64,000 bases of DNA from the NCBI GenBank assembly GCA_951406725.2, contig OX597828.1, positions 3,038,001 through 3,102,000 of the forward strand, given 5' to 3'. Each line of letters opens with the position of its first letter. Positions within the stretch are counted from its first letter, which is position 1. Below, in pieces: positions 29,193 to 54,874 of the stretch. The notes beneath the pieces are model-generated. The model was given only the letters and a program-made list of their open reading frames with translations. It did no database searches and had not been told where the DNA came from. A program made the position numbers and the translations under genes. Source of the DNA: Octopus vulgaris. Taxonomy: Eukaryota.

Positions 29193-29790
29193 AGTCACCG
29201 CTGTTTGTCTATCTGTGTAAGTATTCTTGTGGTTTAGCTGAAGCTAAGCTGTTGTGGAGTAGACATATGATGAAAACTATACCAACCGTGATCATACCAT
29301 GTTGTTCGTAAGTGCGTGTGTGTGTATGTGTATGTGTGTGTATGTGAGCGTGCGCGCGTATTGTGCTATATTGTCTGTGGGTGTCAGTTTATAGAAAGCT
29401 AAAAAACGACAAAATAAACTCGGTTATTAGAATAGATTCACCGATTACTCACCATATATACAATTCAATGTCACTGTAAGAAGCCTGTAAAGAAGCATCA
29501 GTCATATTTTGGTTTCTGTATAATGCGTTGTCTAGTCGCTTTCGACAGACACGTTGCTACATACACAATCATTTATGTGTGAAACGTGCGCGCGCACACA
29601 CACATACGCACACACACACACACGCATGGTTCAAAATTGTGTGTGTACATCAAGCACACATACATATGAACATGCATACACATACGTACACACATAAGCA
29701 TGTGTCAAAACTGTGTGTATATATTTATATGTATTTATATATACATGCATACACACACACACACACACATATATATATGTATATATATAT

Positions 29791-30188
29791 AGGCGCAGGA
29801 GTGGCTGTGTGGTAAGTAGATTGTTTACCAACCACATGGTACCGGGTTCAGTACCACTGCGTGGCACCTTGGGCAAGTGTCTTCTACTATAGCCTCGGGC
29901 CGACCAAAGCCTTGTGAGTGGATTTGGTAGACGGAAACTGAAAGAAGACGTATATGTATATGTGTGTGTACGTGTATGTTTGTGTTTGTCCCCATTGCTT
30001 GACAACCGATGCTGGAATGTTTATGTCCCCGTCACTTAGCGGTTCGGCAAAAGAGATCGATAGAATAAGTACTGGGCTTACAAAGAATAAATCCCGGGGT
30101 CGAGTTGCTCGATTAAAGGTGGTGCTCCAGCATGGCCGCAGTCAAATGACTGAAACAAGTAAAAGAGTAAAAGAGAGAGTAAAAGAGA
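29791..30188 (+). mobile_element. SINE family A, full length
   Basis: Close match to 28501-28915; its tail abuts the (TA)n that holds the retrozyme-like arrays. Confidence 0.9.
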
Positions 30189-30362
30189 TATATATATATA
30201 TATATAACATAAGGGACTAAAGCCATCTGAATATGGCTAGGGACAGGGCAGGGTGGTGGGGGTGTTACTGTTGCATTTAGCCCCAGGCGAACATCGACGT
30301 CACCAGAAAGGCCCGACACCGTCACGGTGTCCTTAACCTGCAAAGGGAGGTAATTCCCCGAT

Positions 30363-30436
30363 GAAGCGGAAACCACACACGGACCATGGTTTCAAGGTGT
30401 ATTGCCTATCGTCGGCGTGTGGTAGGCTTCCGCTTC
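30363..30436 (-). ncRNA. Type I hammerhead ribozyme, array A copy 1
   Basis: Reverse complement of 31220-31293. Confidence 0.8.
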
Positions 30437-30718
30437 CTCGACGAATTCTCACTCTGCAGGATATTCATATATAGATTTTCAAGCAAAATACATTTGCTGA
30501 TTTCGAAAATCTGTTCGAAAGCAATAATAATTCTCTAAAAGAGATATAGACAGTAACTGCTCGATAACATAAGGGACTAAAGCGATCTGAATATGGCTAG
30601 GGACAGGGCAGGGTGGTGGGGGTGTTACTGTTGCATTTAGCCCCAGGCGAACATCGACGTCACCAGAAAGGCCCGACACCGTCACGGTGTCCTAACCTGC
30701 AAAGGGAGGTAATTCGAT

Positions 30719-30792
30719 GAAGCGGAAACCACACACGGACCATGGTTTCAAGGTGTATTGCCTATCGTCGGCGTGTGGTAGGCTTCCGCTTC
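30719..30792 (-). ncRNA. Type I hammerhead ribozyme, array A copy 2
   Basis: Reverse complement of 31220-31293. Confidence 0.8.
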
Positions 30793-31219
30793 CTCGACGA
30801 ATTCTCACTCTGCAGGATATTCATATATAGATTTTCAAGCAAAATACATTTGCTGATTTCGAAAATCTGTTCGAAAGCAATAATAATTCTCTAAAAGAGA
30901 TATAGACAGTAACTGCTCGATAACATAAGGGACCTAAAGCCATCCGAATATGGCAAGGGACAGGGCAGTGGTGGGGGTGTTACTGTTGCATTTAGCCCCA
31001 GGCGAACATCGACGTCAAAATGCAACAGTAACACCCCCACCACCCTGCCCTGTCCCTAGCCATATTCAGATGGCTTTAGTCCCTTATGTTATCGAGCAGT
31101 TACTGTCTATATCTCTTTTAGAGAATTATTATTGCTTTCGAACAGATTTTCGAAATCAGCAAATGTATTTTGCTTGAAAATCTATATATGAATATCCTGC
31201 AGAGTGAGAATTCGTCGAG

Positions 31220-31293
31220 GAAGCGGAAGCCTACCACACGCCGACGATAGGCAATACACCTTGAAACCATGGTCCGTGTGTGGTTTCCGCTTC
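31220..31293 (+). ncRNA. Type I hammerhead ribozyme, array A (core variant CCGACGA, GUC site)
   Basis: GAAGCGGAA-GCCUAC-CACACG / CCGACGA (31241-47) / U-AGG-CAAUACA-CCU-U / GAAA (31263-66) / CCAUGG / UC, cut predicted after 31274 / CGUGUG-UGGU-UUCCGCUUC. Confidence 0.82.
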
Positions 31294-31577
31294 ATCGGGG
31301 AATTACCTCCCCTTTGCAGGTTAAGGACACCGTGACGGTGTCGGGCCTTTCTGGTGACGTCGATGTTCGCCTGGGGCTAAATGCAACAGTAACACCCCCA
31401 CCACCCTGCCCTGTCCCTAGCCATATTCAGATGGCTTTAGTCCCTTATGTTATCGAAATTCTTCCCGGCATGCCCGTGTAAATTTTGCGTCTGCGCAGAG
31501 ATTTGAAAAGTTAAGATCTGCTAGTAGTCGGGTTTAACATATAGCCCCACATCGCTGCAGACCTCGATTAAATTCAG

Positions 31578-31657
31578 GCGACTCGCTGATGAAGCCAGCC
31601 TTAGCAAACATATTCTGTGTTTTGCTAGAAAGAAGCAGAAAGCGCGGTACGAGTTGT
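31578..31657 (+). ncRNA. Type I hammerhead ribozyme, array B copy 1 (stem III point change)
   Basis: GCGACUCG-CUGAUGA-stem II-GAAA-GCGCGG-UA-CGAGUUGU. G replaces C at the base of stem III. Confidence 0.68.
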
Positions 31658-32025
31658 TAAAATTATCGGTAAACGTTTTTGATTTTCACTCTCGATAAAT
31701 TCATCCCCTCTTTGTGTTCCCAGCACTTGGCATCTTTATTTAGGAGCCTTTAATTGTATAACCACATGAATAATATTTTTCTATATGAATAATATTTTCG
31801 TCTTATGACTAATTCGTCTTTTGTGCTGGGCACCTGGTTGTAAATAATATTACTACCCTTCTTGTTTATATTCGCATACTACATGATGAATTTATTCGTA
31901 AAATTCTTCCCGGCATGCCCGTGTAAATTTTGCGTCTGCGCAGAGATTTGAAAAGTTAAGATCTGCTAGTAGTCGGGTTTAACATATAGCCCCACATCGC
32001 TGCAGACCTCGATTAAATTCAGGCG

Positions 32026-32100
32026 ACTCGCTGATGAAGCCAGCCTTAGCAAACATATTCTGTGTTTTGTTAGAAAGGAAGCAGAAACCGCGGTACGAGT
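32026..32100 (+). ncRNA. Type I hammerhead ribozyme, array B copy 2
   Basis: ACUCG-CUGAUGA (32031-37)-stem II-GAAA (32084-87)-CCGCGG-UA-CGAGU. Palindromic stem III ACCGCGGU. Confidence 0.8.
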
Positions 32101-32264
32101 AGTTAAAATTATCGGTAAACGTTTTTGATTTTCACTCTCGATAAATTCATCCCCTCTTTGTGTTCCCAGCACTTGGCATCTTTATTTAGGAGCCTTTAAT
32201 TGTATGTATATGTATATATATATCATATCAATACTAACTATGACTTAATTTTTCCTCTCACACC

Positions 32265-32319
32265 GTCTCCGATGAAGGGACATTATTATTAATTAATATC
32301 CTGGAAACAGCTGTAAGAT
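32265..32319 (+). ncRNA. Type I hammerhead motif (core variant CCGAUGA) in a roughly 170-bp solo cassette at 32222-32392
   Basis: GUCU-CCGAUGA-AGGGACAUUA...UAAUAUCCUG-GAAA-CAGCUG-UA-AGAU. Confidence 0.72.
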
Positions 32320-32389
32320 CTTCTATCTATAAATGCTCTAATATCATACAGCCTTGGTTTTTTTTCATCTCATTGCGCAAAAAATTGAT

Positions 32390-32467
<78 letters not shown>

Positions 32468-36109: not shown

Positions 36110-36965
36110 TTCGGTAATGGACACAGAACACTATAAAAAACTAGTACTTTCCATACTAGAAAACGAAGCTTTCTACGAAAAAATTATAAACTATAAACAA
36201 CAAAAAACATCCTTAATTCTTCTACATGGAAAAGGCCTGACAGAAAAAGAAACACGAACTTCAAATGTAAACTCAGTCTTTTTTACGGCCTCCCTAAAAT
36301 ACACAAGAGCAAGATAATCAATGAAGCCTGCAAACAATCACCAGGCAAATATATAAATATCCAAACGCCAGAAGACTTGACTTTAAGACCCATTGTAGCT
36401 GGGCCGGCCTGTGAAACCCACCGCCTAAGCAATTTTCTAGACATCCTACTGAAACCCTTGCTGAAATACATCAAAAGCTTCATTAGGGATGGTTTAGACA
36501 TGTTAGAACACCTACCAAAAACGATTAATGAAGAGGCAATATTGGTTACCCTCGATGTTATCAATTTTTACACCAACATCCTCCATGACTATGGAATAAA
36601 AGCAATTAAATTCTGGTTGGAAAAGTAGCCCGAAGTCCTCCCGGAACGCATAAACCAGATCTTTATTATTGAATCCTTAAAATTTATACTTCAGAAGAAT
36701 TATTTCCTATTTGATGACACATACCATCGTCAGAAATGCGGAATTGTGATGGGGACGAAAGCAGCTCCTGTTCTTGCGAACCTAATAATGGGTTATTTTG
36801 AATTCACCTTATATGAAATATCACTTCAGAAATATGGTTATCCATTTTACCTCTACATAAGAGAAAATTGGAAGCGATACCTGGATGACTGCTTTATCAT
36901 CCGGAAGGAGAACATCGACAAACTTTTGGATTTCAAAACAACACTAAATGACATAAATAGTAACT
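36110..36965 (+). pseudogene. Penelope-like element reverse transcriptase, decayed
   Basis: FYGLPKIHK...LRPIVAGPACETHRLSNFLDILLKP...LVTLDVINFYTNI...Q.CGIVMGTKAAPVLANLIMG...WKRYLDDCF, with a frameshift and a stop at 36626-36628. Confidence 0.9.
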
Positions 36966-37239
36966 TAAATATACATACATACTTCTCCAGAAGTTCCCTG
37001 TTGATGTTTCACGTTTCCAATCCTGCGCAACGCGGCATTGCTCGGCAGCATGTCTGTTTTCTATGTCATCCATGTCTGAACTATATAATGCTAAATGTTC
37101 ATACAAAAGAACAAACTGCTGTTGTGACTCACAGCCATTTGAGTTTGACCGCATAACCACTTCCGGAAGCTACGCTCGCCATTTGCAACTAGTCCTCCCA
37201 GAGCTCCCTCCCTCCCCCGTTTAGTCGAACGAGTAAATA

Positions 37240-53302: not shown

Positions 53303-54360
53303 TTCAATTTTACTCAACTGGTCAATAGAACAATTGAGCAATTCCCTCATAAAATTCCAGACAGAATTGAAAAGAGTTTCATCACCGAAGGATTAAAGTT
53401 TATTCCCCAAAACAGCATTTTTGACTACATAGATCAAACAAAGCTTATTCTAAGAAATAGACTGTCTGTTCATCGACAACAAATACGAGACCCCAGTACT
53501 AGACAGATTCCACTGAGTGGACACATAGACATATGTGCAACAAATATGTCCCCCAAATTCCAGGTCTTCCCACTCTACCTATATTCAGTCAAATCCACAG
53601 ATGAAGCACAGATAAACAAAGAAAATACTTTCATACAAATGTACAAACCAAGACGTAACAAACTTTAACAGAGTACAAAACTCATTCTGCCATTTAATAT
53701 GAGGAACCTATACAACGAACAACTTTAGCCATTGAACTACATACAAACGACTACAAACGACATACAAACTACATTCAAGCGACTCCTGTCCACTCTCCCA
53801 CCTTGATTGTAACTGAACATGTTCACTCAACCGTGTCGGCCTTCTTTTTAGGTGCAAAATATATTGTCACATGATACTAAGGCACAGACATAGTGGGAAA
53901 TGTACAAAAGGTAATAAACTTAATTATGTGTTCATTCTCTACAGACACTTGACAGAAAACATTCAGAGCATTGATTATTTGGACATGCTCAATCAACCGT
54001 GTCAGCCTTAGCTTACGACGCCAAACATTGTCACTAGATACTAACACACGGATGTAGCGGGGAACTAACAAAAAATTCTAAGACCAGTCATGTGACTACC
54101 AATCAAAACCTATTCAAAACACATACTAGTTTGAGCCATGATCTCCCTATAAAAATAGGGTAAGCTTCAAACACTAGTCAGAAGCAAGACAGTTGCGACA
54201 TAAGCCAAGTCTTTCTATTTCAACTTTTTGAAAATCATTGTAAACTGTGAAACCGGTTAAAACTTTAAATATAGTAATAAAAATTATTTCATCTATTATC
54301 AGTTCATTTTCAACTTCTATTTTCCTATTTACCCGTGTGAAATAAAATCACGTTGCTTTC
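53303..54360 (+). mobile_element. Penelope-like element 3' part: RT stub fused to GIY-YIG endonuclease (open frame 53303-53668), 3'UTR and decayed HHR at about 54223-54265
   Basis: FPHKIPDRIEKSFITEGLKFIPQNSIF|DYIDQTKLILRNRLSVHRQQIRDP...LSGHIDICA...KENTFIQMYKPRRN*. Downstream UUGAAAA...GAAA-CCGG-UUA. Confidence 0.8.
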
Positions 54361-54370
54361 TATATATGTA

Positions 54371-54459
<89 letters not shown>

Positions 54460-54488
54460 CTTTTAAGCAGCAGAAAATTCAACAAAAT

Positions 54489-54526
54489 CTGTTACTCTGA
54501 GTTTCTCGTTGCCGTTCATCAGACAG
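54489..54526 (-). ncRNA. Minimal type I hammerhead ribozyme (left arm of the inverted repeat)
   Basis: Exact reverse complement of 54669-54706. Confidence 0.8.
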
Positions 54527-54668
54527 TTTTTGCTAGAATGGAACTGATATATCAATTCAATCTAGACTCTTACAAACGCTACACCTTTAAAAAGAAATGG
54601 ACTTGTTTGATTGTAGCGTTTGTAAGAGTCTAGATTGAATTGATATATCAGTTCCATTCTAGCAAAAA

Positions 54669-54706
54669 CTGTCTGATGAACGGCAACGAGAAACTCAGAG
54701 TAACAG
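54669..54706 (+). ncRNA. Minimal type I hammerhead ribozyme (38 nt)
   Basis: CUGU-CUGAUGA-A-CG-GCAA-CG-A-GAAA-CUCAGAG-UA-ACAG. Confidence 0.8.
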
Positions 54707-54808
54707 ATTTTGTTGAATTTTCTGCTGCTTAAAATAAAGCATATTACTCTACCACTGGTATTTGAGTACTCTTTTTTCCACCTTGTTTCACATTTATGTG
54801 TTTACTCC

Positions 54809-54874
<66 letters not shown>

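Follow-up and report, generated by a model that had tools for sequence, protein, structure and literature searches.

A probable Penelope-copied retrozyme family with variant hammerhead cores in AT microsatellites of the Octopus vulgaris genome

A two-armed hammerhead insertion in the window

The window, the 64,000-nt stretch of Octopus vulgaris DNA analyzed here, contains an insertion built from two adjoining hammerhead repeats (Table 1). We refer to the 360-nt hammerhead unit under study as family A and to the adjoining 445-nt hammerhead repeat as family B. Three full family A units (360, 356, and 361 nt) are present and are 98-99.7% identical, together with two partial units. The first-pass annotation of this DNA had described a tandem array from 30204 to 31456. 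The units are real, but the plain tandem arrangement is wrong: they form one two-armed, head-to-head insertion that starts at 30206, with 2.25 units on the minus strand and 1.2 units on the plus strand, and that continues directly into family B. The left arm stops in (AT)n, while the family B arm stops in an AT-rich tract. This head-to-head, two-ended insertion in (AT)n, overlooked in the annotation, is the most informative feature of the locus.

The family A unit is non-coding, with a GC content of 47% and a longest ATG-initiated ORF of 50 aa, and thus lacks the reverse transcriptase (RT) and GIY-YIG ORF that marks an autonomous Penelope-like element (PLE). The single type I hammerhead that had been proposed for each 356-361-bp monomer is present in all three full units, with position and strand unchanged. 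Retrozymes are expected to consist of short, non-coding units in tandem, each full copy carrying a type I hammerhead, as is seen here.

Two further sequences were also noted. A SINE-like repeat, which has many copies in the window, lies immediately to the left of the (AT)n target. Within the unit, approximately 58 nt are 72-76% like part of another abundant repeat family (L004, 2068-2117; L076, 7850-7906), whose ends resemble those of non-autonomous Helitron/Helentron elements.

Table 1. Positions of the family A insertion and of other features in the window
Feature	Position	Strand	Basis
SINE-like repeat	29785-30187		
(AT)n target microsatellite, left end	30188-30205	.	sequence
Left arm of 2.25 units, with its outer 3' end on S1, a fixed site at unit position 361	30206-31017	-	
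Full unit 1, 360 nt	30206-30565	-	
Type I hammerhead motif, predicted cleavage after C30382	30363-30436	-	
Full unit 2, 356 nt; its small deletions spare the hammerhead	30566-30921	-	
Type I hammerhead motif, predicted cleavage after C30738	30719-30792	-	
5'-truncated unit (positions 265-361), without hammerhead	30922-31017	-	
Head-to-head joint of both arms	31017-31018	.	
Right arm, 1.2 units; stops 5 nt beyond S1 and joins family B	31018-31456	+	
46-nt "tail" from S1 to S2; S2, which follows 31136, is genome-wide the second fixed insertion end	31091-31136	+	
Type I hammerhead motif, predicted cleavage after C31274	31220-31293	+	
Core C3 C4 G5 A6 C7 G8 A9	31241-31247	+	
Palindromic stem III	31266-31273	+	
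Segment with 72-76% similarity to a portion of another abundant repeat family	31379-31436	+	
Family B arm, 445-nt unit, 1.7 copies; closes the composite insertion at an AT-rich tract	31456-32205	+	
Family B hammerhead motif, CUGAUGA core	32031-32095	+	
Short element ending in (AT)n	32240-32392		
Minimal-type hammerhead motif of the short element	32269-32315		
Broken PLE reverse-transcriptase fragment	36197-37156		
Short piece resembling a PLE RT fragment	near 53303		
Small two-armed (AT)n insertion	54458-54810		
CUGAUGA motif of the small insertion	54493-54522	-	
Inverted CUGAUGA motif of the small insertion	54673-54702	+	

Anatomy and predicted folding of the hammerhead

Read from the sequence, stem I of the family A motif consists of 6 bp, a UAC/U internal loop, and a further 12 bp. 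The motif proceeds through the core CCGACGA, a U·U at 10.1/11.1, a 3-bp stem II with the loop CAAUACA, the GAAA stretch, the palindromic ACCAUGGU, and GUC. Each element listed in the first-pass annotation (long stem I, CCGACGA, 3-bp stem II, GAAA, palindromic stem III, and GUC) was located in the three units. The description of retrozyme hammerheads as "minimal" has to be corrected, and the motif found here is canonical-type: canonical type I hammerheads are assigned to retrozymes and minimal ones to PLEs (PMC7229834, PMC4209133; here and below, papers are cited for the parts of them available to us).

The 74-nt motif and the monomer fold with z-scores of -5.5 and -5.8, respectively. The lowest-energy fold of the monomer differs from the hammerhead (-34.1 versus -25.3). 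Two copies cofold through an 8-bp intermolecular stem III (-72.4 versus 2 x -34.1 kcal/mol), which resembles the dimer model of PMC4209133. The comparison with Rfam models, suggested earlier as a check, gave 24 matches at E<=10, all hairpin look-alikes and none a hammerhead. On the opposite strand, a further hammerhead candidate (CCGAUGA...GAAAC near 30349) was rejected; it has no stem I and is lost in other subfamilies.

Copy number, age, and core subfamilies

A DNA search of the octopus's own 2.8-Gb genome with the family A unit returned 938 candidates, 40 of which were scored. The exact young-type core pattern occurs in 1,223 copies, compared with 0 for a reversed control pattern, showing that the motif is not due to chance. 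A broader pattern identifies 1,784 hammerhead cores. The S2 end motif followed by (AT)n has 724 dispersed occurrences, a lower bound on the number of insertions. Together, the similarity search envisaged in the annotation and these patterns reveal hundreds of young, dispersed insertions. Family A is therefore a multi-copy, dispersed family of monomers to multimers without LTRs, as retrozymes are.

The unit is also found in public sequencing runs of 9 studies, and part of it is contained in 20 of 24 public-run rows, none of which is recorded as RNA. In each of three runs guessed to be RNA, a 390-391-nt contig spans the whole unit, with the end-to-start joint in two of them; a DNA tandem or a multimer transcript would give the same. 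Depth differences along the unit in a DNA-like run are a lead only and do not represent copy numbers. The exact core pattern gave 0 matches in viral contigs and 0 in metagenome contigs.

Position 4 is fixed as C in the young clade (1,222 of 1,223 cores, a single core having another base), in agreement with the C noted earlier in place of the canonical U. Across 108 scorable loci, the canonical CUGANGA core is absent and five variant cores are found instead: CCGACGA (53), CCGAUGA (28), UUGAUAA (14), UUGACGA (9), and UUGAUGA (5). The subfamilies are 83-100% identical. Units of one insertion diverge by a median of 0.56% in 25 CCGACGA loci and 0.045% in 12 CCGAUGA loci, assembly errors included, and this tiny divergence indicates that family A is very young.

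A tree built from 84 units is ladder-like and groups the C3C4 cores in a single branch (100/100) opposite the U3U4 cores; six core changes are required. The tree has a midpoint root only and its bootstrap is not fully settled, so the direction of core evolution rests on the midpoint. U3·G8 is likely the wobble intermediate between U3-A8 and C3-G8.

Conservation of the ribozyme fold

The pair formed by core positions 3 and 8 is C-G in 80 of the 108 loci, U-A in 14, and U·G in 14, while C·A is never seen. G5, A6, and A9 are invariant across the 108 loci. The center of stem III reads AU in 84 cases, UA in 17, and UG in 6, with two single broken copies. Pairing was scored in 24 of the 55 distinct motifs, a set of our own choosing that excludes truncated copies and most young-clade singletons. 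Here 93.9% of cells are paired, a value reached by none of 500 shuffles, a control that ignores kinship; slid structures gave 26-57%. Both-sided changes occur at three pairs of this set. The hammerhead fold is thus conserved with covarying pairs, as expected of a retrozyme, through few independent events, given the six core changes on the tree. Other genomic copies that keep the core and the covarying stems, on which the first-pass annotation had made its reading depend, do exist, and judged by these patterns the hammerhead looks selected.

These data also bear on the idea that family A is a non-autonomous PLE derivative whose dead, vestigial hammerhead is kept as a hairpin or protein-binding fold. 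Such an origin would fit the non-canonical core of every subfamily (C4, U3·G8, or U3-A8), the U·U at the base of the 3-bp stem II, the competing fold, and the lack of an Rfam hammerhead match. However, 3-8 is a tertiary pair of the catalytic core that lies outside the hairpin, and it is kept in 108 of 108 loci; G5, A6, A9, and the self-complementarity of stem III are likewise kept across subfamilies that are 83-100% identical. In addition, U3-A8, U4C (in a viroid), and a tolerated U10.1·U11.1 have each been reported in functional natural hammerheads (PMC3088659). We consider a vestigial hammerhead quite improbable.

Two fixed insertion ends in (AT)n

To define the insertion ends, 107 loci were collected as the most similar copies, as the first listed cores on contig 1, or through a variant tail pattern; 17 overlapping duplicates and 1 degraded locus were dropped, leaving 89. 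Insertions with two arms account for 65 of these, 64 of them without an edge cut. Outer ends fall at two fixed sites with a spacing of 46 nt, S1 at about unit position 361 and S2 at about position 46 of the next unit. The 64 uncut two-armed loci comprise 60 with S1+S2, two with S1+S1 (the window insertion and L014), and two with one end elsewhere. The S1+S2 combination therefore occurs in 60 of 62 classifiable two-armed insertions (p 4e-16 against 50:50), and the window insertion is one of the two exceptions. In a second sample of 60 loci chosen by their S2 end, 48 have an opposite arm, of which 46 end at S1, 0 at S2, and 2 are edge-cut.

The target is equally uniform: 140 of 154 arm ends abut (AT)n, within which target-site duplications are unreadable. 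Inner ends vary in position, and in most loci the arms approach each other to within a few bases. An inverted, 5'-truncated partner arm, a tail at a single end, and an AT-rich/(TA)n target are characteristic of PLE insertion, and all are seen in family A. The genomic ends are thus of PLE type, in line with the suggestion in the annotation that Penelope-like enzymes move these units. Given this two-ended PLE-like footprint in more than 700 AT microsatellites, family A is likely a circular-RNA parasite ("retrozyme").

In the short insertions L183, L195, L207, L210, L216, and L238, both arms break off at almost identical unit positions. Numerous inner ends are concentrated around positions 233-240, next to a predicted hairpin. 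A shared hairpin bringing S1 and S2 together was rejected as a candidate, being found in one unit fold only and absent from the local fold, the PLE, and family B.

The same ends are informative about a DNA-level satellite or a fold-back assembly artefact. Inverted repeats beside microsatellites are prone to misassembly, and the arms in L057 and L061 are noisy. A fold-back, however, would produce identical ends left and right. In 106 of 108 classifiable cases, the ends observed here are instead offset by precisely the 46-nt tail. The 724 dispersed S2-(AT)n junctions, the ladder-like subfamily tree, and the occurrence of the unit in public runs of 9 studies further argue against such an origin, which we regard as extremely improbable.

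Penelope-like elements in the same genome

Starting from the broken PLE fragment in the window, we reached a young family whose ORF is intact; a second, short piece of similar appearance lies elsewhere in the window (Table 1). The intact PLE (L163-L182) has an ORF of approximately 753 aa and many near-identical copies. In Pfam, this ORF matches RVT_1 (E 1e-7) and, below the curated cut-off, GIY-YIG (E 0.0016), and the endonuclease is preceded by a CX4CXXC motif, as described for the Neptune and Nematis clades (PMC8557442). The element targets (AT)n and has a 48-nt tail, with one short and one long end in 8 of 8 scorable loci (of 20). Its hammerhead motif has a U3-A8 core and an extra A in the GAAA stretch. 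Autonomous PLEs therefore co-occur with family A in this genome, as they do with retrozymes.

Between the family A unit and this PLE, the one PLE family compared, no significant shared sequence was found, and we accordingly treat the 753-aa PLE as a model of the mechanism rather than as a proven partner. A tail-to-tail link between the two was rejected (alignment score 30 versus a shuffle mean of 37). A PLE ORF is attached to the family A insertion in 0 of 60 S2-anchored loci (of 724).

Published data on PLEs describe a comparable process. In vitro, both strands of AT-rich DNA are cut and two internal RNA start sites define the tail; the protein is predicted to dimerize, and the hammerhead is protein-assisted and unnecessary for insertion (PMC11167929). 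Genomic PLE copies are inverted and 5'-truncated, often carry the tail at a single end, and occupy (TA)n targets (PMC8557442).

Nature of the copied template

To characterize the template, we compared the two arms in those 106 of the 146 loci analyzed that are two-armed and share 60 or more positions. The arms of one insertion show a median difference of 0% (55 of 106 identical), compared with a median of 4.05% between loci, where 7.4% of 11,722 pairs are identical. Eight loci carry a locus-private substitution in both arms. At least two cleavage sites are crossed by 48/155 and 15/108 arms, and arms reach approximately 15 units. Inner ends do not pile up at the predicted cleavage site (5/154, p 0.12; 2/104). 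Read-through of cleavage sites and the lack of an end pile-up mean that the template was not a cut linear monomer, and the same haplotype in both arms, together with read-through, fits a circular or multimeric template.

Long arrays provide additional insight. Partly shared alleles are lacking in 14 of 19, which contain up to 19 near-identical units and are compatible with a circle, while alleles restricted to some units occur in 5 of 19 (L040, L065, L076, L094, and L225). The L040 array is alternating, and L076 and L225 are mosaic, possibly reflecting dimeric templates or template switching. The five heterogeneous arrays need template switching, multimeric templates, or later conversion; a single monomer circle is insufficient for them.

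An uncut linear multimer transcript could serve as the PLE template, with the hammerhead cutting rarely or late and circles not being intermediates. It would account for read-through and the missing pile-up as well as a circle does, and for the 5 of 19 long insertions whose arrays are mosaic or periodic; in vitro, moreover, PLE insertion proceeded from uncut RNA and was independent of the ribozyme (PMC11167929). Yet the 14 arrays without partly shared alleles, with their near-identical units, speak against it. Many insertions contain fewer than 2 units and some arms about 15, so copy number would have to be regained somewhere, and selection on a dimer-type ribozyme would go unexplained. On balance we find an uncut linear template rather unlikely.

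Other hammerhead repeats

Composite loci in which family A is joined to other hammerhead repeats are the window insertion (with family B), L010, and L045. The partners in L010 (2022-2580) and L045 (1993-3030) are two further tandem hammerhead families with units of approximately 480-490 nt. An arm in L045 stops at unit position 186, adjoining the predicted cleavage site. Family B, also sampled in L138-L162, has a CUGAUGA hammerhead with a palindromic stem III and 971 genome candidates. It too lies in (AT)n, with two ends approximately 111 nt apart, and its first copy in the window has an altered stem III. The window also contains a small two-armed (AT)n insertion with inverted CUGAUGA motifs and one short and one long end, and a short element whose minimal-type hammerhead motif has the C4 core CCGAUGA. 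Unrelated motifs in L082, L104, L143, and L150 also carry C4 cores, indicating that U4C recurs in this genome.

Proposed mechanism

We propose that family A is an animal non-LTR retrozyme copied by a PLE enzyme from a predicted circular RNA, and we consider this chain as a whole probable. What is observed lies in the DNA, namely the copy number, the target, the two fixed ends, the single haplotype of each insertion, and the conserved fold; from these we infer the RNA and enzyme steps. Our confidence is high for mobilization by a PLE. It is good, though lower, for the predicted activity of the ribozyme, and we lean only modestly towards the predicted circular template.

Tandem units would be transcribed and probably cut at GUC, likely slowly and as dimers through the palindromic stem III. 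The cut monomers may then be ligated into 360-nt circles, a step we favor somewhat. A PLE RT/GIY-YIG protein would very probably cut both strands of (AT)n, with cDNA starting at S1 from one DNA end and at S2 from the other, on the same or clonal RNA. Each enzyme would pass the cleavage site and travel from a fraction of a lap to approximately 15 laps, after which both cDNA ends would be joined head-to-head. Occasional template jumps could add other hammerhead families, such as family B in the window.

Some points weigh against parts of this scheme. The non-hammerhead lowest-energy fold of the monomer and the reduced activity of U4C in vitro speak against an active ribozyme; in a viroid, U4C is slower in vitro, yet sufficient in vivo (PMC3088659). 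The dispensability of the PLE hammerhead for insertion in vitro speaks against a need for the ribozyme (PMC11167929).

A more comprehensive reading, which we offer tentatively and with some doubt, is that a PLE dimer copies one ribozyme-made circle from two starts at once, that the hammerhead is kept deliberately slow or PLE-protein-assisted so that circles survive, and that at least four hammerhead circle families share the machinery and swap templates within one insertion. The slow-hammerhead series would then run from U3-A8 to U3·G8 and on to C3-G8 with C4.

The insertion ends give base-exact predictions (starts at S1 and S2, an (AT)n target, and one of each start per insertion) that are testable in the existing PLE in vitro assay. 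The mover of animal retrozymes and the role of the circle as template are both stated to be open in the literature (PMC7761336, 10.64898/2026.07.22.740005). According to a 2020 review, animal retrozyme repeats show no motif indicating a partner enzyme (PMC7761336, in its accessible part), and the accessible text of 10.64898/2026.07.22.740005 offers retrozyme-PLE co-occurrence and pLTR similarity only.

Comparison with known systems

In the literature searched, mostly open-access, we found no description of family A or of its footprint in any retrozyme; the supplements of PMC7229834 or of the 2026 preprint could list a cephalopod family, and the unit may already exist as an unclassified repeat in Repbase-type libraries. 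The preprint covers 35 species, and the classes listed in its accessible part include no mollusc; one of nine predicted Xenopus retrozymes cleaved in vitro (10.64898/2026.07.22.740005). The word ribozyme is absent from the accessible part of an octopus repeat annotation (PMC13282606), and a squid genome paper gives 235 Rfam hammerhead hits (PMC6962438).

Like animal non-LTR retrozymes (Cervera & de la Peña 2020, PMC7229834; Li et al. 2026, 10.64898/2026.07.22.740005), family A has a non-coding tandem unit of a few hundred nucleotides with a canonical-type type I hammerhead per unit, a palindromic and weak stem III, dispersed copies numbering in the hundreds to thousands, co-resident PLEs, and a well-folded predicted circle. 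A mussel retrozyme family measures approximately 350-390 bp (PMC7229834). For family A, circles and cleavage are predicted from the DNA. In contrast to these retrozymes, family A has no canonical core (the young clade has C4, the others U3·G8 or U3-A8), and its GC content is 47%. In the available text of the same two papers, we found no retrozymes described as strictly (AT)n-targeted or as inserting in two arms that end at two fixed sites.

EN+ PLEs (Craig et al. 2021, PMC8557442; Frangieh et al. 2024, PMC11167929) share with family A the inverted 5'-truncated partner, partial tandems, a tail at one end, AT-rich/(TA)n targets, and a type I hammerhead. Unlike them, family A has no ORF, a 46-nt tail instead of the reported 30-40 bp, and many-unit arrays, and its hammerhead has a long stem I with an internal loop rather than the minimal form.

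Reported core variants (Perreault et al. 2011, PMC3088659; Cervera & de la Peña 2014, PMC4209133) share the U3-A8 covariation, U4C, and the U10.1·U11.1 mismatch with family A. They differ in that the single family A holds U3-A8, U3·G8, and C3-G8 with C4 as successive propagated subfamilies, with C4 in 1,222 copies. Family A thus offers a naturally occurring series of variant hammerhead cores, one that escapes motif and Rfam searches. The proposal of an undescribed animal non-LTR retrozyme with a C4 core, made in the first-pass annotation, is borne out at the genomic level by dispersed young copies, a covarying hammerhead, and PLE-type ends. Because family A has the genomic features of animal non-LTR retrozymes together with a core that departs from the canonical one, we classify it as a variant animal non-LTR retrozyme.
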